Source: an uncultured virus (IMG/VR IMGVR_UViG_3300042869_000764)
Lineage: Duplodnaviria > Heunggongvirae > Uroviricota > Caudoviricetes
IMG/VR virus record: IMGVR_UViG_3300042869_000764
Direction: 5' to 3' (one strand)
Length of the DNA: 64,000 bases
In this document: in pieces, positions 1 to 22,036 of the stretch
How positions within the stretch are numbered: position 1 is the first letter of the stretch
How the letters are laid out: the number at the start of each line of letters is the position of its first letter
Position numbers and translations under genes: made by a program
Notes under the pieces: model-generated
Seen by the model: only the letters and a program-made list of their open reading frames with translations
Told to the model about the DNA's origin: nothing
Database searches by the model: none

Positions 1-3000
1 TTATTATCAACAAAGACCAAAGATTTGTTTTTTAACAGTGCTGCGGCCTGTTGATCAATATTAGAATAATCAAAAAATCTAGCAACGGTTAGTAACTGCA
101 GATTAGCTGTGGTACTTGTGTCTATCTCAGGATCATCTATATCTGCGTTTACTGTGATTGTTATGGTTGTGTTTGTTACTGCACTGATCTTGAAAAATCC
201 TTGCAGATTTGCAATTTCACGAATACCTATGTAGTCATCAACTGATATAACGTGTGGACGATTTAGTGTTAGTATCACTATGGTATCGTCTGGTCTGGCT
301 ACTGCCACTACATAAAGCAGCGAAGATTCATTTACTCGTAGAACTTGCCACGAATCTTGATAAAACGTCACCCAGATGTGATCATTTTCGTTAACTGTAT
401 CGATGGCTAAGGTAGTTAAATCATCCAAGGTTCGAATAGTATGTTGATACTGACCGGCACTTACGTAACCAGCTGTGAACAACGGCTCAGTCTGTGTCGT
501 AGTAGGTAAAAAATCCGCTGTGTAGGGCACAGGAGCAATAGTGAAATCGGTGGCAGTGATACGATAGAATGAATCTACAACTTGGGAATTCACTGAGAGA
601 TTAGAAATGTGCAGCTGAGGATTCAGTTTAAATTTAGCTTTTTCCAACTGTATTTCAACTTCTGTAAACTGGTCCGTGCCGCCAACTTGTCCTAGTCTAA
701 ATGCCCATTCTTCATTGAGAGTAACACTGCCTGCCGAAGATCTACTTAACTTATCAAATATCTTGGTTATGCTGTTTGCTGTACCTTTTTCTCTGATAAA
801 TCCTTGATATAGTTGAAATTGGCTCACAGAATCTTCTGCTAGATTTTGTAGATAATCTCGCTGTTGATATCCTATAGCGTGTCTAGCAAGTTCTCGTTGA
901 CTTTGATTTATACCTTGTGATGTAGTTTCAAAGTAGTCACTGAACTGATTTATTTTGTAATCAAAATTAGAAACCAGTTGTTTAACAGGAGTGGAATCTA
1001 ATTTAGTCCACGTCGCATCGTTAAAGTTTTCCGAACCTAATTGATTAACTAAACTAGTCCAACTATATGATTTGTAAGATACAATGTCTCCTAATTTGTA
1101 ATCTTTGAACGGTTGCCAAACTTGTATATCGACATTGTCGAATAAAAATCCTGGACTGGTGTAATCTCCGTCCCAATCTACTGTACGGAAAGCCTGCATT
1201 TTTATGCGTCCTTGCCGGTATCCTGTGGTCTTGTCATAGATGATATCATTAAATACGGTACGATCATCAAATACAGTTACATGCTCTTTGATAACATAAT
1301 GTAACCGTGCGTAATATATACCGTCAGTGGTATTTGTTGTTTCTAATTTAAAATTCTGAAAACTTCTATTAACATTAATAAATCTAGGAGCCAATACTGT
1401 GCCATCGCCTTTAAGTATCTGGTAGTCATAGAATCCGTCTAAGAGATTATCCGGTGTTCCTACAGGCACATTAATTTCTAATTTTTGCGCTGAGGGGCTT
1501 AGAGCTATAATTGCGCCAGGTTCCCAATTGTGTTTGGTCCAAAACATAAATTCTTTGGCAGCACTTAACCAATCCTGGCTAGTAGCATTCTGAGGATCAT
1601 AGTTATTGAATACAATACCCTGTGTTTTAAGATAACTGTCATAACCTAACAACAGATCCACCACTTGTTGTATACTGGTTAGCAATGTGCCATAGCTCAT
1701 CTGTCGCACTGTGATGGTATTAAAAACTCGTCTTCTCAGTGCTTCTACCGCGCCTAATTTAGGAACGTCTCTTAATTTCTGCCATTGATTGCGATCAAAC
1801 TCGTCGGTACTGCGATGTGTCTTCAATGCACGATAAAAATTGCTTTGATATCTTACTAATACACCGTTATTGTAGTTTTTTTCTTCAACCCAGTCTGTGA
1901 ACGGTTCACTTAAACCGCCTACTGAAATCACTGGATCTTTGCTGCTGGCTTGTGGCTGATGATAATTGAAATAGGGATGTATGTCATCATAACCTGCTAC
2001 TATCCAGCCGCCTCCAGTTTTTTCTAATCGAACTCCACTGTAACTAACCGTAGTTACTGGACTGCTGACATTGAATATAATATCATAGTTTTCAGGAGGT
2101 ATGAAAATACTTTTAGATTTAGCAGAAGGATTTTTAGAGTCTAGTAGATACTTCTGTTGTTGCTGATCTACGAATCCACTCATTCTAAAACTTAGGGCCA
2201 CATCTAATTTTTCTATTTTTTTCTGTAGACTATCTACAGGCAAGCCTTGTGATTTTATGTAACTAGTGAGATATCTCACTAGGCCTATATTATTAGCTTC
2301 AGACACATGCCTTGCAACATCTGAGATAGTTACAAACAATCCTGTGTCTGAATTTATATATTGATCTAGTTTATTTTTGGTGAATTTTGATCTATCAAAA
2401 TTGTCAGGAATATATTCGAATGGTTTCATCACACACATGGCTGTGATTACTGCATAGGGCCATTCTGAACTAGATCGCCAGGCATGTTCAACTGGACTGA
2501 CATCTCCTAGTACGAAAGGTCCGCGATTATTAATCAACGAAAAATCTTTTGCAAGATTCGAATCCAACGGACTCAGCAACTTGCCGTCACCGTCTACAGG
2601 GACGTGCGACGATAACCCGGGTCGTTTGTATCTATCATAACGACCTGCTCGAACGCCTTGGCGAATAATGCCGGCTTCGAGATCTTCCCACAATATCAAG
2701 TTATTGCTGGTATAAGGAGCGGCCCCGTATTCGGCTTCCCACCAGTCCGGTTGTTGACTGAATCCCAACATTTCCCAAGGACAGCGATGTGGTCTGTCTG
2801 TGTCATAGAAATGTTGATACACTCCTCTCCACCAACCAGGTATGTTTTTGGTCTTGGTGGGGTCAGACATGTTTGAATAGGTATAAGTGAATGAGTTTTC
2901 ACTGTCAAAATATTCATTTACAGTATAATTGATATTGGTATTTTGTATCCATTTCAAAAAATCTTGGACTATCACACTGTCTAGCTGAGTTTTGGTGTAT

Positions 3001-6000
3001 TCACCAACTCCATAATAACCGGCTAATATTTGATCTATATCGAACACTGCAGAATCATATTCCTGCTTGATATTGTTGTAGATACGTAATTCTAATTCCA
3101 ATAGTAGGTCATCTCTGTAATCTCCGTAAGCTGCTGTTATACTGCCGTCGTGACCTTGTATGACATATCTAGGCTCTTGATATGTGTCATCGAGAAATTT
3201 GGAAGGAGTGTATTTTTTATACAGTCCCATAGAGGTCGGGGTAGGTGGGATATGATTAGTAGATGTACTGAGATATTCTCTGATTTCTATGATATCTAAT
3301 AACTCTAGTGTTACTAATAATTTCACAAAGCTAAATGTCACGTCAAACACATAGTCAACACCATGTAATAACTGTGTGTCATTTTTGTATACATACACTG
3401 CTCTGCTACTAGGCTTTGTAAGATCAAATGGTTGTGACAAGGAAAACGTGCGTATCCCTGTGTCTTCTACCACTGTGGTCAACGCAGTAAATGCGCCTGC
3501 TCCGATCATATCTGAATCAGCAAATGCATCTTGTGCAGTTTTTACAGATGTAAGACTATTGATGATGTCATCTACAAAATCATTTACTGTATCATTGTAA
3601 TCGATTTCTACAGACCGTTGTAAAAAATTATTTTTAAAAATTGTATATTCTTTTTCAGCATATTGTATGGCTTTGACTATGTTATGGGTTTTGTCACATA
3701 ATGCCATTACTGCCAACGGCGTATTACCGCTGTGTTTTAAAAATCTTGACGCATGATATCTGTAATCTTGAAGATCTCTTAGATTGCTGACTCCTGGTAA
3801 AATACCAATAAACTCGTTGTCCCATTCTATCGCACTGGCAATATGATTAGTGGCCTGCCCGAGTGTAAATGATTGAATTGCAGTGTTAAGGGGATTCTTT
3901 TCAATGCCTATTGGCATTTCATAATATCCTTGATCAGGTTCTATGTCAGCAATGATCTTGATTACCACGGCATCTTTGGCAGCAAATGTTTTATCAAATA
4001 CAAATACATTTCGACTTCGAGTCCAATTACCTAGATATCTGTTTCCGTTGAGATAAAAATTTATATCGGGATCGACTGTGAGATTATCCCATTTCACTGT
4101 GTTAAATGTCAATGTATCAGTAGCAGTGTCTACTATAAGATTATCAATTATTGGTTGGATATATGTATTGTTTAATTTCTGCCACCCGTTGGCAAACACA
4201 TCAGATCCCAGTTTATAAAAACCAGTAGAGATTTTTTGTGTCACAGGCTTTCTATCGACACTGTATCGAAACGTTTGTGTTTCCCAATTCCAATTAAATT
4301 CAATGTCTCCAATATTGTCTATATTGAGATAACTAAGTCTAAAACCTAACTCGCTGTCGATTCTACCATTGCCGGGCTTATAGCTAAGGAGATGCGAACC
4401 TAAAAACTCTGTGTCGGAATACGTTGTGGTATCACCGAAACTTATTCCATCGCTGTCAAAAACATCAAACAATGGTGGTTGATTAACTGTGGTTTTTCGC
4501 TGACTAGCTACCCAGTTTGATCCGTTAAAGTGATACATCAATCCTTTGTTTTTGTTGCCTCTGGTGACAACTACCCCTTGTCCAAGTATTGATTCTGTAT
4601 CTTCAGTTTCCTGCAAATGTATCTGTTTTGAATTAGTATGAGTGATAAATTGCACTGTGTAGATTTTGTTGTTTGCTAATCTATCAGTGTCTGCTATCAC
4701 TAAAATTCTTGCACCGTTGAATAAAAATTCACCATCTACACTGTAGCCCGTCGATCCTTCGATGGTTGAAAATACATCGGCAGTATTTGTATCAATGTAA
4801 TCCACAGACATTTTTGCCGTGGTTCCATGATTAATCAGTTGTAGATTAGGCAGAAATTCGATTATAGGCCGTTTGGCTCTAGAAGTTTCTGTGGCTGGAA
4901 AATCTTGCCCTCGTAGTTTGTAGGCTTTTTCCAATACTGACCGATGAAACCAACGATTATATCGGCTCCACGGATTGTTGTCTAGGCTGTTTCTAGCGAT
5001 AGTGATATAATCTTTAAATGCAGCATATTCAGTGGCATCGTCAAACGGCTGAGTATCAAAGCCTTCGTTGTCGAATAATATTTCAGGAACGTTTGCGCTT
5101 AACTCCGGCACAACTAGATCGGTGAATCGTGTTAAGGTAATAGCCGTGCCTACTCCTTCTACCAACCACAGGTCTTTGGCATATTTTGAGGGAGTGACTT
5201 TGCCATCGAATTCCACAATCATTCCGTTTGAAAACTCCACAGCATTGCCGCTGGTATATGTGGTTTTTCCAAGTATCTCTAGCTCTACATTAATCGCTGT
5301 ATTTTCTTCTATGTCGGAGATGACGAATCTACCAAATGCATCGGGAGTGATGTTGCTTTGATAATAAAGGACATCGGGTGCATCATACGGCACAGTAAAA
5401 GTCAATGTTCCGTTTTCAATTCCGTTGTTTGTAACACCCTTGTCATAGGCAAGTGCTGCGCCTTGGTTAGCTGATTCAACAAACTGCCAATCTTGACTAT
5501 CAATGGCAATAGAACTGGCATCTAAAACAGACACATCACGAATTGCTCTCCATAATTTTGAATCATACACAGCAAAACTTCCTGCACGATACGGTTGGTT
5601 GGGTCGAAACAGTAGTGAGCCGGAATCAAAATTGGTGCGTAAGTTAAAGCCTTCGTCAGGAGCATTAATTTTAAATTTATATGTTTGGCCGCGGAATAAA
5701 GTTAGAGTGGGATTATTCGTGTAGCTGTCAGGACTAAAGACAAATGAATTTCTTGTTGTTCCTAGCACAACTTTATATGTGCTGACTATGTCCGCAGATT
5801 GACCAGTAATATTAATGCTGCGTGGACCTAATGGTTCCCAATAGTATTCACGATAGTTTATGAATTTGTCCCAATCTATGGGAGGGTTCCATGTGTAGTG
5901 AGTTTGATCGGTCAGCTTGTCATCTCGTTCAATGGAATTTCCAAAAAATTTCAGTTGATTTTTGACATCTATGTAGTCATAGAAATTTTCTATTTTATCA

Positions 6001-6266
6001 TGATTTTTAAATATGACTCCAGGTTCGAGCTGATAGCTGCTTCTCAAAGTAGCATCTGTATCAACATATACGTCATTGCCGTTATAGGTTTTGTCATATC
6101 TACGACCCACATAACCTACTACTTTATCTAACACACCGGGTTGAATCAGCGGATCAACTACTGCAGATAAAAATTTATCATTAGCAGGAGTTTGAAAAAT
6201 TGTAGGTAGTAATTCGACTGATCTGCGTATAGGCAACTCGCTTTTAGGAAATGTATTATCAGCCAT
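1..6266 (-). CDS. Giant (>2088 aa) virion/baseplate structural protein, 3'-truncated by window edge
   Basis: Not in the ORF track because it has no stop in the window. ATG at 6266 overlaps the gp6 stop (TAATG). Manual translation gives MADNTFPKSELPIRRSVELLPTIFQT at the start. Spot checks in the same frame read FSQQPDWWEAEYGAAPYTSNNLILWEDLEAG (~2650-2760) and LLKNKSLVFVDN at the edge. Lies in the baseplate operon. Confidence 0.8.
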   Translation of the reverse strand, partial: MADNTFPKSELPIRRSVELLPTIFQTPANDKFLSAVVDPLIQPGVLDKVVGYVGRRYDKTYNGNDVYVDTDATLRSSYQLEPGVIFKNHDKIENFYDYIDVKNQLKFFGNSIERDDKLTDQTHYTWNPPIDWDKFINYREYYWEPLGPRSINITGQSADIVSTYKVVLGTTRNSFVFSPDSYTNNPTLTLFRGQTYKFKINAPDEGFNLRTNFDSGSLLFRPNQPYRAGSFAVYDSKLWRAIRDVSVLDASSIAIDSQDWQFVESANQGAALAYDKGVTNNGIENGTLTFTVPYDAPDVLYYQSNITPDAFGRFVISDIEENTAINVELEILGKTTYTSGNAVEFSNGMIVEFDGKVTPSKYAKDLWLVEGVGTAITLTRFTDLVVPELSANVPEILFDNEGFDTQPFDDATEYAAFKDYITIARNSLDNNPWSRYNRWFHRSVLEKAYKLRGQDFPATETSRAKRPIIEFLPNLQLINHGTTAKMSVDYIDTNTADVFSTIEGSTGYSVDGEFLFNGARILVIADTDRLANNKIYTVQFITHTNSKQIHLQETEDTESILGQGVVVTRGNKNKGLMYHFNGSNWVASQRKTTVNQPPLFDVFDSDGISFGDTTTYSDTEFLGSHLLSYKPGNGRIDSELGFRLSYLNIDNIGDIEFNWNWETQTFRYSVDRKPVTQKISTGFYKLGSDVFANGWQKLNNTYIQPIIDNLIVDTATDTLTFNTVKWDNLTVDPDINFYLNGNRYLGNWTRSRNVFVFDKTFAAKDAVVIKIIADIEPDQGYYEMPIGIEKNPLNTAIQSFTLGQATNHIASAIEWDNEFIGILPGVSNLRDLQDYRYHASRFLKHSGNTPLAVMALCDKTHNIVKAIQYAEKEYTIFKNNFLQRSVEIDYNDTVNDFVDDIINSLTSVKTAQDAFADSDMIGAGAFTALTTVVEDTGIRTFSLSQPFDLTKPSSRAVYVYKNDTQLLHGVDYVFDVTFSFVKLLVTLELLDIIEIREYLSTSTNHIPPTPTSMGLYKKYTPSKFLDDTYQEPRYVIQGHDGSITAAYGDYRDDLLLELELRIYNNIKQEYDSAVFDIDQILAGYYGVGEYTKTQLDSVIVQDFLKWIQNTNINYTVNEYFDSENSFTYTYSNMSDPTKTKNIPGWWRGVYQHFYDTDRPHRCPWEMLGFSQQPDWWEAEYGAAPYTSNNLILWEDLEAGIIRQGVRAGRYDRYKRPGLSSHVPVDGDGKLLSPLDSNLAKDFSLINNRGPFVLGDVSPVEHAWRSSSEWPYAVITAMCVMKPFEYIPDNFDRSKFTKNKLDQYINSDTGLFVTISDVARHVSEANNIGLVRYLTSYIKSQGLPVDSLQKKIEKLDVALSFRMSGFVDQQQQKYLLDSKNPSAKSKSIFIPPENYDIIFNVSSPVTTVSYSGVRLEKTGGGWIVAGYDDIHPYFNYHQPQASSKDPVISVGGLSEPFTDWVEEKNYNNGVLVRYQSNFYRALKTHRSTDEFDRNQWQKLRDVPKLGAVEALRRRVFNTITVRQMSYGTLLTSIQQVVDLLLGYDSYLKTQGIVFNNYDPQNATSQDWLSAAKEFMFWTKHNWEPGAIIALSPSAQKLEINVPVGTPDNLLDGFYDYQILKGDGTVLAPRFINVNRSFQNFKLETTNTTDGIYYARLHYVIKEHVTVFDDRTVFNDIIYDKTTGYRQGRIKMQAFRTVDWDGDYTSPGFLFDNVDIQVWQPFKDYKLGDIVSYKSYSWTSLVNQLGSENFNDATWTKLDSTPVKQLVSNFDYKINQFSDYFETTSQGINQSQRELARHAIGYQQRDYLQNLAEDSVSQFQLYQGFIREKGTANSITKIFDKLSRSSAGSVTLNEEWAFRLGQVGGTDQFTEVEIQLEKAKFKLNPQLHISNLSVNSQVVDSFYRITATDFTIAPVPYTADFLPTTTQTEPLFTAGYVSAGQYQHTIRTLDDLTTLAIDTVNENDHIWVTFYQDSWQVLRVNESSLLYVVAVARPDDTIVILTLNRPHVISVDDYIGIREIANLQGFFKISAVTNTTITITVNADIDDPEIDTSTTANLQLLTVARFFDYSNIDQQAAALLKNKSLVFVDN

Positions 6267-15820: not shown

Positions 15821-16663
15821 ATGATTGTGCCTAAAATTAAGTATCTAACCAACAAAGATTTACTAAGAGAAATACACCTAAGCAAGAATACCTACTGTAG
15901 TTTCACAGACCCTGCATACGAAGAATACGATTTAATTGTCACAACATTAGACAAACTGAACATACGCACTATCGCAGAAGCCAAAAGAAATAGAGCATCT
16001 AAAATGGCCAAGGCTGCACACGAAGCAGCTGTATACGCAGCTGGTAAAAAAATGCCAGCTAAAGAGTTTGAAGTTGATTATCGCAAAGTGCAGAAACAAG
16101 ATCTAGTTTTTCGTGTGATGACCTTTACACACATACCGTTAGCGCCGGGCCGTAAGAAAACTCTTAAAAACACTGCTGACAGTCATGACAAAGTAAACTT
16201 TCCGCCTTTCCAGCATTGGAAATATGATGACAACGATAACTTGATCTGTGTGGGCAAAAGTCATTGGAAAGGAGATCTTGATCATGGAGAGTTTTCAAAA
16301 GATCACGGACAAATGACCAACGACCTAGCTCGCATGTTTATCAAGCTCTGTGAGAGATATGCCACCAGAGGCAACGTCAGAGGCTACACATACAATGACG
16401 AAATGAAAGGTCAAGCTATTCTTCAACTAACTCAAATAGGACTCCAATTCGATGAAAGTAAATCTGATAATCCTTTTGCTTACTATACTGCTGCTGTCAC
16501 TAATTCATTCGTTAGAATTATCAACCTGGAGAAGCGCAATCAAAACATTCGAGACGACATTCTCGAAATGAATGGTATGAATCCTTCATGGACACGTCAA
16601 AACAGCTCCAATGGTGGTAAGAACGCTCCCGGACCAGTCACTGTCACAGATAGTTTAGATTGA
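15821..16663 (+). CDS. gp55: Late-transcription sigma factor, T4 gp55-like, with N-terminal extension
   Basis: GYTYNDEMKGQAILQL...FDESKSDNPFAYYT...NSFVRIINLEKRNQ; conserved 55-47-46 gene order. Confidence 0.8.
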   Translation: MIVPKIKYLTNKDLLREIHLSKNTYCSFTDPAYEEYDLIVTTLDKLNIRTIAEAKRNRASKMAKAAHEAAVYAAGKKMPAKEFEVDYRKVQKQDLVFRVMTFTHIPLAPGRKKTLKNTADSHDKVNFPPFQHWKYDDNDNLICVGKSHWKGDLDHGEFSKDHGQMTNDLARMFIKLCERYATRGNVRGYTYNDEMKGQAILQLTQIGLQFDESKSDNPFAYYTAAVTNSFVRIINLEKRNQNIRDDILEMNGMNPSWTRQNSSNGGKNAPGPVTVTDSLD

Positions 16664-16700: not shown

Positions 16701-17711
16701 ATGAATCTCTTTAAGAAAGTTGCATGCTTCACTGACATACACTTTGGATTAAAATCCGGAAGTCGTACACATAATCAAGACTGCGAAGATTTTGTGTCTT
16801 GGTTTTGTGACACAGCTCGAGCACAAGGCTGCGAAACAGCTATATTTCTAGGTGACTGGCATCATAATCGCAGTACCACTGATGTTAGCACTATGAATTA
16901 TACTGTGAGCAACTTGGAAAAACTCAGTCAGAGTTTTGAAAAAGTCTATTTCATTCTAGGCAATCACGATTTATTCTACAAAGACAAGCGTGAAATCAAC
17001 TCTGTAGAGTTTATGAGATTGTTTCCTAACATTGTGCCCATACGTGAGTTATACACAGAAGGGGATGTCACTATCATGCCTTGGCTGATAGGTGATGAAT
17101 GGACCACTGTAAAACAACTGAAAAGCAGATACATTTTTGGACATCTTGAGCTGCCGCACTTTTATATGAATGCCATGGTGCAGATGCCTGATCACGGTCA
17201 GTTGCAGACTGGACACTTTCAGAATCAAGAATTAGTGTTTACTGGACACTTTCACAAGCGGCAACAAAAAGGCAATGTGGTTTATATAGGCAATGCTTTC
17301 CCGCACAACTATGCAGACGCAGGTGATGACGATCGTGGTATGATGATCATGGATTGGGGTGGCAAACCCGAATATCATTCTTGGCCCGATCAGCCCATAT
17401 ACAGAACCTACAAGCTGAGTCAGATCATCGATAGGCCTGATGAGCTGCTGCGTGAAAAGATGCATTGTCGTGTGACCATTGACTTGCCTATCACATTCGA
17501 AGAAGCAAACTTTATCAAAGAACAATTCATGCCGCAGTATAAACTGCGTGAGTTAATGCTAATTCCAGAAAAAGTAGAAGTAGAAAGTGCTGTTAATCCC
17601 ATAGACATCACATTTGAATCTGTGGACACTATTGTAATGAATCAAATCAATAACATAGACAGTGATACCTATGACAAAAAATTACTGTTGGATATCTATA
17701 ACGAACTATGA
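16701..17711 (+). CDS. gp47: Recombination nuclease subunit, gp47/Mre11/SbcD
   Basis: Metallophosphoesterase motifs TDIH, GDWHH, GNHD, GH, GHFH. Confidence 0.92.
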   Translation: MNLFKKVACFTDIHFGLKSGSRTHNQDCEDFVSWFCDTARAQGCETAIFLGDWHHNRSTTDVSTMNYTVSNLEKLSQSFEKVYFILGNHDLFYKDKREINSVEFMRLFPNIVPIRELYTEGDVTIMPWLIGDEWTTVKQLKSRYIFGHLELPHFYMNAMVQMPDHGQLQTGHFQNQELVFTGHFHKRQQKGNVVYIGNAFPHNYADAGDDDRGMMIMDWGGKPEYHSWPDQPIYRTYKLSQIIDRPDELLREKMHCRVTIDLPITFEEANFIKEQFMPQYKLRELMLIPEKVEVESAVNPIDITFESVDTIVMNQINNIDSDTYDKKLLLDIYNEL

Positions 17712-19486
17712 TTAAAATCAACAATCTCACAGTGCGCAACTTCATGAGCGTGGGTAATCAGACCCAGGCCATTGATTTTGACAAAGGTCAGCTTACCTTG
17801 GTGCTAGGTGAAAATATGGACCTAGGCGGTGACGACAGCGGTGCTAGAAATGGCACAGGCAAGACTACTATTATCAACGGATTAAGTTATGCCATCTACG
17901 GACAGGCGCTGACTAATATCAAACGTGATAATCTTATCAACAAGATCAACAGCAAAGGAATGCTGTGTACAGTGACTTTTGAAAAAGATGGAGTCAAGTA
18001 TCATATCGAGCGAGGTCGCAAGCCTAATTTACTGAGATTCAGTATAAATGATCAAGAACAAGAGCTCAGCGATCTTGACGAAAGTCAAGGCGACAGCAGA
18101 GAAACACAAAAGGCCATTGAAGAAGTGTTTGGCATGAAACATGAGATGTTCAAACATCTCATTGCATTAAACACCTACACAGAACCTTTTTTGAGCATGA
18201 AAGCTGCAGATCAACGTGCTATTATTGAACAGTTGTTGGGAATTACCATACTGTCAGAAAAGGCAGAAGCACTTAAAGATGCAATTAGAATCAGCAAAGA
18301 CAGCATTGCAACAGAAAACACAAGAATAGAAACTGTCAAAGCCAGCAACGAAAGAATACAACAAAGCATAGAGTCGTTGATACGCAAACAACGCATGTGG
18401 GAAGAACAAAAAGAAACTGCTCTGACTAATTTACTCAAAAGCATTGATCGGCTCAGCGACATTGACATTGATCAAGAAATCGTCAATCAGCGAGCATTAG
18501 CAGATTGGAATACAAATAAAAAGGAACACGAGAGTCTAGCATCACTGAGTGCTAAACAAACTTCAGCTTTGGAAAAAGAACAGCGTATTCTAGACAAACT
18601 AGAACGAGAATTAGTCAGTCTAACAGAACACAAATGTCATACCTGCGGCCAAGAGCTACACGACGCCAAACATAATGAAATTATGTCTGCTAAGTCTGCA
18701 CAGATTGAAGAAAGCCGTGGCGCTATCAACGAACATCTCGAAGAGCTCAGTGTGATCACTGAAGCAATATCGCTGCTGGGCGAACTAGGTGCGTGTCCTT
18801 CAGTGACCTACGATAGTTTAGAAGCAGCATTGAACCATAAAAATACCCTAGACAGCCTAGAGCGTGACATTACTATCAAGACTGCAGAAGAAAATCCCTA
18901 TGACGATCAGATTGTTGAACTCAAAGAAACAGCTGTGCAGGAAATAGATTGGAACGGACTCAACGAACTAGTGCGTGTTAAAGATCATCAAGAGTTCTTG
19001 CACAAGTTATTGACCAACAAAGATAGTTTTGTTCGCAAACGAATAATAGATCAGAATCTTGCGTTCTTGAATCAACGTTTGACATATTATTTGGACAAGA
19101 TCGGATTGCCTCACACTGTGGAGTTTCAGAATGATTTAACTGTGGTTATCACACAGCTAGGACAAGATCTAGATTTTGACAATCTAAGCCGTGGAGAACG
19201 TAACAGATTGATCTTATCTTTGTCGTGGGCGTTCCGTGATGTGTGGGAAAACCTATACACCAGTATTAATTTGTTGTTTATCGACGAACTTGTAGATTCG
19301 GGCATGGATGCTAGTGGTGTTGAATCCAGTATTGCTGTGTTGAAACGCATGACTCGTGAGCGTGACAAGAATGTGTTCTTGATTTCACATAGAGATGATT
19401 TGACCAGTCGTGTTAATCACGTGCTGAAAGTGATCAAAGAAAATGGATTCACTAGTTATAGCAATGACATAGAGATTATGGCATGA
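17708..19486 (+). CDS. gp46: Recombination ATPase, gp46/Rad50/SbcC
   Basis: Walker A NGTGKT, coiled coil with CHTC zinc hook, LSRGE signature, Walker B LLFIDE, ISH. Confidence 0.93.
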   Translation: MIKINNLTVRNFMSVGNQTQAIDFDKGQLTLVLGENMDLGGDDSGARNGTGKTTIINGLSYAIYGQALTNIKRDNLINKINSKGMLCTVTFEKDGVKYHIERGRKPNLLRFSINDQEQELSDLDESQGDSRETQKAIEEVFGMKHEMFKHLIALNTYTEPFLSMKAADQRAIIEQLLGITILSEKAEALKDAIRISKDSIATENTRIETVKASNERIQQSIESLIRKQRMWEEQKETALTNLLKSIDRLSDIDIDQEIVNQRALADWNTNKKEHESLASLSAKQTSALEKEQRILDKLERELVSLTEHKCHTCGQELHDAKHNEIMSAKSAQIEESRGAINEHLEELSVITEAISLLGELGACPSVTYDSLEAALNHKNTLDSLERDITIKTAEENPYDDQIVELKETAVQEIDWNGLNELVRVKDHQEFLHKLLTNKDSFVRKRIIDQNLAFLNQRLTYYLDKIGLPHTVEFQNDLTVVITQLGQDLDFDNLSRGERNRLILSLSWAFRDVWENLYTSINLLFIDELVDSGMDASGVESSIAVLKRMTRERDKNVFLISHRDDLTSRVNHVLKVIKENGFTSYSNDIEIMA

Positions 19487-19701
19487 GTTCGGACGCACAC
19501 GATCGTATGATCCATGCCTTTCAAGAATACTTTAAATGGCAGGATCGATTTCATCACAAAAAATCCAACGAAGCAGGTATCAAAGCAAGATCATGGCTAT
19601 CAGAAATACGCACACAGGCATCAATCATAAGAGTAGAAATACAAGATAAACGAAAGGCACAGCGAGAATCCAGAAAAGGCATGAGAGGCAAGAAGCTTTA
19701 A
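19483..19701 (+). CDS. Small basic protein, resembles histone H1-like Hc1 N-terminal domain
   Basis: SNEAGIKARSWLSEIRTQ resembles the Hc1-type NKAAGTRARK..LE motif (from memory); K/R-rich tail; ATGA overlap with gp46. Confidence 0.5.
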   Translation: MSSDAHDRMIHAFQEYFKWQDRFHHKKSNEAGIKARSWLSEIRTQASIIRVEIQDKRKAQRESRKGMRGKKL

Positions 19702-19712
19702 CTAATTAAAGA

Positions 19713-20147
19713 GTGCAATGGACGTTTCAAAATCAAATAATAGACGAAATACCAGAAGGCTATATTGGCTTTGTTTATATAATCACGAATAAAACCACCG
19801 GACAGAAGTACATAGGCAAGAAATTAGCACAATTCAAACGTACCAAACCCCCACTCAAAGGCAAAAAACTCAAAAGAAGAAGTGTAGTAGAAAGCGATTG
19901 GCGCGAATACTATGGTTCATCTGATAGGTTAAACGCAGACGTCCAAACATTAGGTCCGGAAAATTTCACAAGAGAAATACTTTACCTTTGCAAGTCCAAG
20001 GCAGAACTATCATATTTAGAAGCAAGAGAGCAGTTTGAACGCAGAGTTTTAGAAACTGATGACTATTATAATGGTATTATAAATGTCAGAGTTGGCGGAT
20101 CAAACATACTTAGACAGCGTCTACTAGAACAATCTCAGGCAAAATAA
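19713..20147 (+). CDS. Stand-alone GIY-YIG family endonuclease (144 aa)
   Basis: GFVYIITNKTTGQKYIGKK, YYGSS, FTREIL and conserved E and YN; no long C-terminal DNA-binding arm. Confidence 0.8.
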   Translation: MQWTFQNQIIDEIPEGYIGFVYIITNKTTGQKYIGKKLAQFKRTKPPLKGKKLKRRSVVESDWREYYGSSDRLNADVQTLGPENFTREILYLCKSKAELSYLEAREQFERRVLETDDYYNGIINVRVGGSNILRQRLLEQSQAK

Positions 20148-20149
20148 AG

Positions 20150-20606
20150 CGGTTTTTTGGCTAGCGCAGGCTCAATTTCGTGCGCTCTAAACCTGGTCTA
20201 CGTGTACACAGGGATGGAAAACCTTGCCGCAAAGGTGCTTAACCACTACCCGAAAGGATGACGATCGCTACCAAGACCTGCGATTTGGTTATTTGAAAAG
20301 AAAAACAAGGCAAAAAGAGGGGAAATAAGCCCCACGTTTGCAAACATGTTAGCGTATGTTTGTAAGCCGCCGTCATATAAAGACGCAGCTCGAGGTACCG
20401 GATGACCGCCTCTGTAATGCTGTAACGCTAGAGTGTACTGTGCAACTCGCATAATGCTCTTATCTTTGCCCGGCCTGGGCAAAGTGTGACTGAACAATCT
20501 GCATAATACTTGAATTGCTTCGCAATTACAATGTCAATAATTATTAAAAAGAAGACAATCGCGTTGAGCGACAAGCGAAAACGCAAACGAGCGCAAGCTC
20601 GTTTTT
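20150..20606 (+). ncRNA. Candidate large structured ncRNA
   Basis: Largest intergenic gap in the window, containing at least 10 stems; G-U pairs and GNRA loops favour the + strand; ends in a GCAA-loop hairpin with a U tract. Confidence 0.6.
20585..20606 (+). terminator. Probable intrinsic terminator or 3' hairpin of the candidate RNA
   Basis: AAACGAGC-GCAA-GCTCGTTT followed by TT. Confidence 0.6.
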
Positions 20607-20642
20607 AATAAATAAAGTTATACCTTTTAGGAATGCCTTGAT

Positions 20643-21614
20643 ATGAGAATTAATGAACTATTAACCGAATCAGAAACCCAACATCTTGAAGAAGGACCTA
20701 TTTTAAATAAGATCGGTTCAGTTGTAGGTAATGCTGCCCGTGGTGTAGCTAACACTGTAGGAGCTGTAGCAGGTGGGGTAGCAGGTGCTGGTCGTGCTAT
20801 GAAGAAAGGATATCAAGCTGGCAAAGCATTTGTAGGCGATGATCCTGATCCTAATAAAGGACAGCCTGGGTATGATGCAGGTGGAGCGCCAACAGCACCA
20901 AGTGGCGGAACTCCTTCAGCAAAAGATATCAATGCGCAAGGTCCTACAGGTACAGCACCTGCTGTGGCACAAACAGGAGCAGCTGGCGCTGCGTTAGCTA
21001 AAACAACCGCAGCAGTAGACAAACAGACTACTGCCAAAGCAGGACAAACAGTCTACGCACAAGTAAAAGCCAACGTAGACAAGTTAGATAAGAAAGGCAA
21101 GCAGAGAATTTTACAGTTGTTGCAGAAATCGATGGCAACACCTGATCCTAAACCAGCTGTAGGAGCAGCACCGGCAGCGACAACTCCCCCAGCAGCGGGA
21201 GCCGCAGCAGCACCAGCTGCTGAACCAACAACGGCAGCAGCGGCAGATGCGGGAGCCGCAGCAGCACCAGCTAACACCATGGCCAATGCACCAGTTAGTG
21301 CCACAAACACCGCGGCTGCAGATAATCCCAATCAACCTCAAACCAAGAAAAGAGGCGGCAGAGTAGCGGGTCAAGTAAGTCAAACACCAAATGCTATACG
21401 TAAACGTGAAAAACGTCAAGCGGCAGCTGCTGCTAGTTCCACCGGCAACAAAGTGATGGCTAATATGGCTAATCAATTATCTCAACAAAATGCCAGCAAG
21501 ATTAATCATGGAAATACACTGTCAGAAGCTTTGGCTCAACGAGTGGAAATGCACAAGCAAAAAATGTTTGAAACCGGATTATCACAAGGCACGATCAGCG
21601 TATTTAGAAAATGA
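20643..21614 (+). CDS. Ala/Pro/Gly-rich hypothetical protein, putative internal head protein
   Basis: MRINELLTE...HLEE N-terminus, TAAATA at 20609-20614, perfect 24-nt repeat at 21195-21218 and 21249-21272, basic KKRGGR patch. Confidence 0.6.
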   Translation: MRINELLTESETQHLEEGPILNKIGSVVGNAARGVANTVGAVAGGVAGAGRAMKKGYQAGKAFVGDDPDPNKGQPGYDAGGAPTAPSGGTPSAKDINAQGPTGTAPAVAQTGAAGAALAKTTAAVDKQTTAKAGQTVYAQVKANVDKLDKKGKQRILQLLQKSMATPDPKPAVGAAPAATTPPAAGAAAAPAAEPTTAAAADAGAAAAPANTMANAPVSATNTAAADNPNQPQTKKRGGRVAGQVSQTPNAIRKREKRQAAAAASSTGNKVMANMANQLSQQNASKINHGNTLSEALAQRVEMHKQKMFETGLSQGTISVFRK

Positions 21615-22036
21615 AAATACGTGACATTGTGGTTGAAGTTGGACCAGTGGCCTACGAAAAAGGCAAGTCTAAGATGGACAAAGTGTTAAGTCCTAGTAAA
21701 TGGCTTGATGGCACCAACGCTAAACTACAGTATGACAAAGGTGCAGACAAGATGGACAAGCTATTAACTCCGTCTAGATGGTTTGAACCATCCGGCACTG
21801 AAAAATCTAAAACCAAATCCAATGCAGCTCCCGCTGACACTACAGAACTTAAGACCCTGATTGATCAAGCCATGTCCGGCAAGTCGTTGGACACAGCAAG
21901 TCTACAAAAATTAAGAACTTACCGTGGAGATATCAGTGATAAAGAATTAGGTGCTACCGTTGACAAAGTGCTGCGAGGCAGACCTCTTGATAGTCAAGAC
22001 TTGTTTGCTCTAAAGTCTTATAGAAACACGCTCTAA
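21611..22036 (+). CDS. Hypothetical protein, putative internal head protein
   Basis: MKIRDIVVE N-terminus; internal duplication YEKGKSKMDKVLSPSKW / YDKGADKMDKLLTPSRW; ATGA overlap with upstream gene. Confidence 0.6.
   Translation: MKIRDIVVEVGPVAYEKGKSKMDKVLSPSKWLDGTNAKLQYDKGADKMDKLLTPSRWFEPSGTEKSKTKSNAAPADTTELKTLIDQAMSGKSLDTASLQKLRTYRGDISDKELGATVDKVLRGRPLDSQDLFALKSYRNTL

Follow-up and report, generated by a model that had tools for sequence, protein, structure and literature searches.

The RNA described here lies within a 64-kb window (the whole stretch of DNA that was analysed, 64,000 nucleotides), which forms part of the 282-kb record of an uncultured T4-like jumbo phage. The gene run ahead of the RNA reads gp55, gp47, gp46, a 72-aa ORF (ORF72) and a GIY-YIG nuclease. 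Positions 1-6265 of the window hold no ORF of at least 120 aa and the rest is gene-dense. The features of the locus are as follows.

15821-16663, plus: T4 gp55-like late sigma factor (phrog_12791, E 1.7e-80)
16701-17711, plus: gp47/SbcD-like recombination nuclease (assigned together with gp46 by phrog_100 and phrog_77)
17708-19486, plus: gp46/SbcC-like recombination nuclease (assigned together with gp47, same families)
19483-19701, plus: conserved 72-aa ORF without a family
19713-20147, plus: 144-aa GIY-YIG nuclease of the SegE_GIY-YIG / phrog_447 family (PF19835, E 9e-37)
20159-20507, plus: structured RNA of ~350 nt, proposed primer RNA
20159-20294, plus: 5' domain, Rfam RF01718 Polynucleobacter-1 (101.1 bits against a cut-off of 37; model positions 1-141)
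20163-20186, about 20194-20210, and 20220-20236, plus: hairpins of the 5' domain
20240-20245/20286-20291, plus: helix closing the 5'-domain junction
20160:20171, plus: extra pair in the 5' domain (covariation)
20319-20333, plus: short linker hairpin (covariation at 20319-20321/20331-20333)
20336-20431, plus: central domain, cow-rumen-2-like
20337-20347/20356-20366, plus: long G-U-rich hairpin of the central domain
20349-20355/20425-20431, plus: pseudoknot 1 (mutual information)
20373-20376/20402-20405, plus: pseudoknot 2, with the loop of the CGG/CCG hairpin (mutual information; absent from the preliminary description of this DNA)
20386-20389/20419-20422 and 20392-20395/20409-20412, plus: central-domain helices
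20443-20455, plus: repeat X1, 7-nt core 20449-20455, proposed to pair with the template strand of X2 (identity covariation with X2)
20464-20484, plus: hairpin between X1 and X2 (98% paired; G-U 49 against A-C 2)
20495-20507, plus: repeat X2, 7-nt core 20501-20507 (island-type RNA sequence conservation ends here)
20513-20527, minus: hairpin with a C-GNA-G loop on the minus (template) strand, proposed single-stranded DNA signal
20500-20560, unstranded: A+T-rich stretch with a purine run, proposed unwinding element (70-78% in the 40-nt windows from 20500 and 20520)
20561-20603, plus: two tail hairpins, 20561-20584 (GAGCG-N-AGCGA at 20566-20578) and 20586-20603, proposed displaced-strand signal for lagging-strand initiation (covariation)
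20609-20614, plus: TAAATA, T4-late-promoter-like box of the next (variable) gene at 20643 (conserved in the alignment; outside the RNA)

TAAATA boxes precede 50 of the 271 ORFs genome-wide. The gene downstream of the RNA varies among relatives, carries a late box of its own and is convergent in some loci, and only two genes separate the RNA from a convergent block. The genes after the RNA (20643-22036 and their counterparts in relatives) are diverse, yet combine the late box with a common N-terminal motif, M-R/K-I-x-E/D-I/L, which we presume to resemble the capsid-targeting sequences of T4 internal proteins. Scanning the RNA locus for promoters and terminators gave chance-level results, as did a search for minus-strand promoter-like sites of the kind that RNA I-type antisense control would use. 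Each of the six freshwater jumbo-phage records searched has the RNA once.

The nuclease belongs to a family common in T4-like phages (phrog_447/PF19835, matched by 703 isolate records), whose frequent name 'NAD synthetase' is a mis-annotation. Y22, Y33, G35, E103, and N120, which include the catalytic Tyr, Glu, and Asn, are invariant across 86 homologues. The predicted structure (pLDDT 96) comprises a GIY-YIG catalytic domain, one additional helix and, at residues 40-60, a basic beta-hairpin; its top fold match is the I-TevI catalytic domain (Z 8.7), in agreement with a GIY-YIG fold, and neither a Foldseek search with the model (nothing at E <0.001) nor the GIY-YIG profile run against PDB sequences (zero matches) added to this. 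The protein had previously been described as lacking a long DNA-recognition arm, and the model, with its catalytic domain and one helix only, bears this out; such armless short GIY-YIG proteins are ordinary, with T4 EndoII (134 aa) among the fold matches. An I-TevI-type homing endonuclease was rejected as its identity, given the 144-aa length, the missing C-terminal DNA-binding domain and a fixed locus with no sign of mobility.

Structure and identity of the RNA

All stems listed in the preliminary description are able to pair, with GAGT placed at 20431-20434. Single-sequence folding is only modestly better than that of shuffled sequences (z -2.5 for the plus strand and -1.8 for the minus strand), and the case for structure is hence built on comparison, using 125 non-redundant relatives (of 166 usable; effective number 91). 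Across these, the pairs with the highest mutual information are Watson-Crick and fall on the stems listed earlier, and the pseudoknot suggested between TAGCGT and ACGCTA is confirmed by covariation at 20349-20355/20425-20431. The proposed GAGT/ACTC stem, by comparison, has to be given up, as all four of its pairs form in only 6 of the 125 relatives and its first base is used by the pseudoknot. When the central and 3' domains are aligned for 35 sequences, pairing holds in 96.2% of cells and 28 of 38 pairs show two-sided changes, a count that leans towards structure because the structure came from a set including the same rows; none of 500 shuffles reaches the observed value, and slid registers give 36-49%. 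The structure is real, with strong compensatory covariation behind its helices and both pseudoknots. Beyond these pairs, G20369 covaries with the 20468:20480 pair, which hints at a base triple or an alternative pairing of the central domain with the hairpin between X1 and X2, and 20379 covaries with 20467:20481.

The ratio of G-U to A-C cells in the core is 330:20 for the long hairpin, 44:5, and 49:2 for the hairpin between X1 and X2, and this large excess throughout the core agrees with the original assignment to a plus-strand RNA. The tail hairpins have no such bias (10:25, 17:38, and 5:8, the first two less well aligned). Because the bias is confined to the core and the GNA loop lies on the minus strand, we place the RNA between roughly 20159 and 20507 and interpret the tail as a set of DNA signals; the length first proposed, ~460 nt, is thus reduced to a probable ~350 nt, as the RNA-like part stops near 20507. 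Part of the stretch was found in 17 metatranscriptomic RNA runs, in none of them as much as half of it, and contigs from four metatranscriptome runs span the nuclease gene and the RNA alike, although contigs cannot give strand, ends or level.

Comparison with Rfam assigns the 5' domain (20159-20294) to Polynucleobacter-1 as a full-length member, so that the RNA, initially considered an undescribed ncRNA, is described for its first 136 nt (RF01718) and uncatalogued in Rfam for the rest. The earlier failure to match it to tRNA, tmRNA, RNase P or group I/II introns is reproduced with Rfam and ARAGORN, and no gene is split at the site. A group I intron core was also rejected by eye, since the pseudoknot lacks both a bulged G-site and an exon context. 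GOLLD and ROOL, large ornate RNAs of lake and rumen phages, and OLE, likewise large and ornate, resemble the RNA in kind and were rejected as identities for want of an Rfam match. A blastn search with the RNA against isolated phages gave no match.

Polynucleobacter-1 is known from a table row in Weinberg et al. (2010; PMC2864571), which gives 16 representatives and, in that row, no function. The motif covers only the 5' 136 nt, whereas conservation in phages and bacteria continues for another 200-330 nt. The central domain has a weak match to a second orphan motif, cow-rumen-2 (RF02947), at 20336-20440 (22.3 bits, E 0.24), which is below the threshold of 66. The likeness to this motif consists of a hairpin with a pseudoknot-type loop, a GCCGCC element, a ACNGGAUGACC loop and a 3' repeat-hairpin-repeat; cow-rumen-2 differs in its 5' domain, in having two to four copies per phage, in the lack of a GIY-YIG gene and in that no GAGCG tail was seen, and the window scores just 22 bits against it. 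Polynucleobacter-1 and cow-rumen-2 look like fragments of one larger RNA class. Our literature search found no account of the full-length RNA, the X repeat or the DUF6641 islands discussed below; the descriptive supplements of the motif papers lie outside its coverage and may hold more.

The repeats, the relatives and the bacterial islands

Four positions in X1 (20449, 20450, 20453, and 20455) covary with the positions 52 nt downstream by identity (98-99%) and not by complementarity, and no Watson-Crick partner of X1/X2 was found in the RNA or within -900/+500 nt. The X repeat is present in 120 of the 125 sequences, and all nine of nine bases are identical in 83 of these 120, compared with 7% of mismatched pairs. 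Same-sense covariation of this type is expected if the RNA pairs with template DNA; the 7-nt match is short, and concerted change of X1 and X2 could also mean two sites for one protein. A helical-phase iteron pair is disfavoured by the variable spacing of the repeats (mostly 47-60 nt), and a genome-wide guide role by the search for extra X copies in the phage genome, which yielded single chance-level hits only. The layout recurs in 25 of 36 divergent marine loci (null 2.8%), where several of the misses show the repeat by eye, and in ~14 of 34 cow-rumen-2 elements by eye, where it is less clear; it is also kept in type 2 RNAs (see below) and in bacterial island RNAs, whose other domains cannot be aligned. 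One relative (L072) lacks X1 and the inter-repeat hairpin through a ~70-nt deletion, either a real loss or an assembly error.

Downstream of X2, the C-GNA-G loop occurs on the minus strand in 80 of the 89 hairpins found among the 120 sequences. Loops of this kind are unusually stable in DNA. The GAGCG-N-AGCGA copy in the tail is the only one in the window and in the 282-kb genome; being short, the motif may turn up often in mobile DNA.

Among close relatives, 66 of 80 have at least 450 nt of sequence behind the nuclease, and all of these carry an RNA at this position (type 1, as in the window, in 64 and type 2 in two). A search by RNA motif only returned 120 loci, 80 of them with long flanks. 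In these 80 the nuclease adjoins the RNA in 67, lies 1-1.3 kb away in three, falls beyond a flank that is too short in five and is absent from five (one of which is a chance hit). L086 was dropped as a chance match in coding or unrelated DNA. In L115 (1234-1755) its place is taken by a RusA-like resolvase (phrog_244, E 2e-20), in L153 and L100 by proteins that are RusA-like by eye, and L140 has no nuclease; phrog_244 was in turn absent from all six GIY-type records searched, two of them near complete. Between resolvase and RNA, just ahead of the latter, L100 has a 13-nt unit repeated in tandem as well as an ORF that is RNase H-like by eye. The RNA also occurs without GIY-YIG in bacterial islands and rumen phages. 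Conversely, the same nuclease family occurs without a match to the RNA model in Melnitz, ACP17, P-SSM4, and 19 Melnitz-like loci, where the 3' X repeat was found in none of the 11 distinct loci with enough sequence, and nucleases 89-95% identical to that of the window precede another RNA type (95% at L018). The idea that the RNA partners the adjacent nuclease is therefore not sustained: the RNA is kept where another gene stands in for the nuclease, where the nuclease lies farther off and where there is none, members of the nuclease family are found without the RNA, and their adjacency is, as judged from these genomes, conserved gene order and no obligate pair. That a RusA-like resolvase occupies the exact GIY-YIG slot in three loci suggests that phrog_447 is a branch-resolving nuclease, and GIY-YIG is probably a co-located, branch-processing replication/recombination enzyme, not a partner of the RNA.

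At least two further RNA types (~200-450 nt) without an Rfam match share the locus and the 3' layout (L018, L062, and L242-L247; L377, L383, L403, L416, and L421; L387, L407, L409, and L411), and type 2 is preceded by an 86-92-aa CxxC ORF in six loci. Closely related phages may carry very different RNAs (types 1, 2, and 3) and yet have the same 3' layout. A pattern search for cow-rumen-2 gave 61 loci (L303, L337, and L339 were dropped as chance matches in coding or unrelated DNA); all nine that were scanned pass the Rfam cut-off, and none of the 61 has a GIY-YIG gene nearby. Rumen jumbo phages carry two to four copies each (up to four on one 416-kb contig) in varied gene contexts, and three of the seven copies looked at have their own sigma-70-like promoter. 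R1, a model built from the RNA family of the window, matches several of these loci at the expected place (best E 8e-5), a result that is partly circular because the loci were picked by a similar motif.

The 5'-domain pattern gave 44 hits in GTDB genomes, of which three are phage contigs in MAGs and 22 were examined as non-coding, the remainder including hits in ORFs. The 22 lie mostly in freshwater Burkholderiales, such as Polynucleobacter rarus and Limnohabitans sp. Bal53. These island RNAs exceed the Rfam Polynucleobacter-1 cut-off in seven of the seven scanned, extend for ~330 nt with their elements in the same order as in the phage RNA, and have TAAATA 105-136 nt upstream of the motif in 12 of 12 cases. 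The islands encode an integrase, a DUF6641 protein, a small tyrosine recombinase and a clamp-loader-like ATPase, and one of them (G010) measures 8.9 kb and is bounded by 40-bp repeats at tRNA-Phe. Apparently undescribed ~9-kb integrase islands of this kind (L353-L356 and L438-L473, Burkholderiales) number up to four per genome, and their small genes behind TAAATA boxes have N-termini that resemble the phage's own M-R/K-I-x-E proteins. Searching with DUF6641 identified 27 loci in 15 of 401 genomes, in which the slot behind TAAATA holds an HUH gene (eight loci), a Polynucleobacter-1-type RNA (five; two above the Rfam cut-off, L460 and L463 below it and L458 unscanned), another RNA-like element with repeat or tail (four) or something else (two), and is unclear or cut in eight. 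In L439, L440, L447, and L464 an ORF of 95-135 aa precedes a conserved RNA-like element of a different kind, in which a G-rich tract and a direct repeat are combined with the same tail (the three scanned have no match in Rfam), and in L444 and L454 the slot is a short repeat-rich non-coding stretch with a 150-180-aa ORF without a family.

The HUH proteins have a conserved H and Y-x-x-K, and their model (pLDDT 88) matches SIRV1 ORF119 (Z 8.8), AAV5 Rep (8.2), MVM NS1, and pMV158 RepB, with Z values just above the level of a common fold; they remain under the Pfam cut-off (PF23343, E 3-5e-4 for two of eight). Judged by the predicted model, they combine the fold, His motif and Y-x-x-K that define HUH Rep proteins. 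The RNA-type islands examined yielded no HUH gene, and neighbouring gene order is common to an island with the RNA (L355), one with another RNA (L467) and one with HUH (L471). Of the comparative evidence, the alternation of an RNA with a Rep-fold gene in a single slot hints most strongly at a role in initiation; the slot may also be a general site for phage-triggered payloads, in which case HUH protein and RNA need not share a job. We regard the DUF6641 islands as candidate satellites of these jumbo phages, a dependence on the helper that we infer. They are presumably comparable with the phage satellites PICI and PLE, being ~9-kb integrase islands at a tRNA with phage-late-type boxes, and differ from these in having no recognised primase or helicase and a replication slot filled by RNA or HUH protein. 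A blastn search of the island RNA against plasmids gave no match, and the one pattern tried in IMG/VR found no free island.

A primer RNA as the proposed origin

We hypothesize, with a probability of roughly 0.55, that the structured RNA is an R-loop primer that serves as the replication origin of this jumbo-phage clade and has been borrowed by satellites, resembling ColE1 RNA II in its working without being homologous to it. RNA polymerase would transcribe the region, which in the present phage would mean reading on from the gp46-GIY-YIG operon, and the folded transcript would present X1, which would pair with the template strand of X2 during transcription and create a persistent R-loop. An RNase H-type or other nuclease would then generate a 3' terminus close to X2 or beyond it, from which the leading strand would be primed, and the tail hairpins on the unwound strands would load helicase and primase. 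The integrated islands would fire their own version when a helper-phage replisome is present, as their placement behind a phage-late-type promoter leads us to propose, and sister islands would use an HUH Rep. GIY-YIG would act as a co-located replication/recombination nuclease, replaceable by a RusA-like resolvase.

Several observations argue for such an origin, namely the identity covariation of X1 and X2 in the absence of a complementary partner, the island slot that holds either a Rep-fold gene or the RNA, the tail hairpins that lack G-U bias (the first with its GNA loop on the template strand), and the occurrence of the RNA in 66 of 66 close relatives with enough sequence. The tail motif, moreover, is found once in ColE1 (chance 0.04). 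The ColE1 record contains two same-sense G6 tracts, an A5 run and, ~135 nt past A5 on the RNA II-sense strand, a single GAGCG-N-AGCGA. We take the exact position of the ColE1 origin, and the identity of the motif there as a primosome site, as assumptions. The two systems share a long folded transcript, a same-sense RNA/DNA repeat near the origin (in the window, the proposed one), an A run and GAGCG-N-AGCGA downstream on the RNA-sense strand. They differ in that the repeat in the window is a variable mixed 7-mer instead of G6, that its RNA has two pseudoknots and no identified equivalent of RNA I or Rop, and that RNAs of this type occur in phages and integrated islands, not plasmids. No homology is apparent, with no Rfam hit to RNA II in the window and none of model R1 in ColE1. 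According to PMC4412123, ColE1 depends on base pairing between the rG stretch in RNA II and the template's dC stretch.

T4 offers a second comparison. T4 itself uses several R-loop origins according to the sections of PMC3016281 on which we draw, in line with the origin proposed here and with the two to four copies in rumen phages, and oriF and oriG are likewise A+T-rich, transcript-primed sites in a phage of the same kind. As described in those sections, however, oriF and oriG are ~100 bp long, sequence-independent and in need of only a promoter and an unwinding element, with no folded RNA among their described parts, which counts against a requirement for one here. Two further results count against an origin. 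GC and AT skew in three genomes (G000, G001, and G002) follow gene strand; at fourfold sites the GC skew does not switch consistently at the locus, and the strand in the sense of the RNA is G-poorer, opposite to the usual leading-strand bias and confounded by gene class; a unidirectional origin would need no strand-composition switch. An RNase HI gene is absent from all four phage records searched, and our guess is that host enzymes or GIY-YIG itself could replace it.

The RNA might instead act in trans, as a scaffold, ribozyme or protein sponge comparable with GOLLD, ROOL or OLE, with X1 and X2 as two sites for one protein and the island copies as late decoys that jam the phage. Its dense tertiary structure goes beyond the apparent needs of an R-loop, some cow-rumen-2 copies have promoters of their own in varied contexts, and the late promoter of 12/12 islands fits a triggered payload. 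Against this, the DNA-type tail stays beside the RNA in phages and islands alike, base-by-base identity of X1 and X2 at several positions suits pairing better than protein recognition, and the RNA types diverge strongly between close phages while the 3' layout is retained, and we consider a trans-acting role unlikely. To a structure formed in single-stranded DNA (a single-strand origin or a packaging or nicking signal on the displaced plus strand, in which X1 would slip across to pair with the X2 complement) we give little credence: the DNA-like tail hairpins, the action of HUH systems on ssDNA hairpins and contig data blind to strand, ends and level would all accommodate it, but the heavy use of G-U (330 against 20 A-C in the long hairpin), the two pseudoknots and the promoter box directly ahead of island copies point to a transcript, and metatranscriptome contigs, weakly, cover the region.

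Still less can be said for a role tied to the flanking genes. A cis-regulatory mRNA element (a 3' stabiliser, a processive antiterminator or a switch for the next gene) would suit the position between an operon and a late gene, and a row of the 2010 table (PMC2864571) lists Polynucleobacter-1 as possibly cis-regulatory; we find it improbable, given that the next gene varies, has its own late box and is convergent in some loci, with only two genes before the convergent block. Least probable of all is an RNA that guides or activates GIY-YIG in the manner of HEARO/omega RNA, or, in a weaker form, is a primer that GIY-YIG trims. Direct adjacency in 67 of 80 RNA-first loci, metatranscriptome contigs that bridge gene and RNA in two runs, the basic beta-hairpin of the protein and the lack of RNase HI in the phages speak for such a role, which is opposed by RNA without nuclease (L100, L115, L140, L153, the bacterial islands, and all 61 cow-rumen-2 pattern loci), by nuclease without RNA (Melnitz-like, ACP17, and cyanophage loci), by 95%-identical nucleases ahead of different RNA types (L018), and by a single copy at a fixed locus with no variable guide-like segment or sign of mobility. 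The likeness to HEARO is that of a large ornate RNA beside a nuclease gene; HEARO/omega RNA with IscB was rejected as an identity, as there is no RF02033 hit, the protein is GIY-YIG and not HNH/RuvC, and the linkage is not obligate, and the RNA of the window differs in having no guide segment and in not being mobile within the clade.

Returning to the R-loop primer, a fuller version of the proposal, which we advance tentatively and at somewhat less than even odds, is that, in a widespread clade of jumbo phages from fresh water and the sea, replication is started by a primer RNA that loads itself, has two pseudoknots and finds its template through a short, variable coupling repeat; that Polynucleobacter-1 and cow-rumen-2 are fragments of this class; and that an undescribed family of Burkholderiales satellites without a protein initiator replicates by expressing a copy of its own under a phage-late promoter, with an HUH Rep as the interchangeable alternative. 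To our knowledge, hardly any replication origin has been mapped in uncultured jumbo phages, and the large ornate RNAs of bacteria mostly have no function assigned to them. An origin of this kind would give a precise function to two orphan motifs, would represent a second natural route to RNA-primed initiation beside ColE1 RNA II, and would let the RNA mark a new family of satellites; an RNA that forms R-loops, is compact and can be reprogrammed would have practical use as a tool, too.
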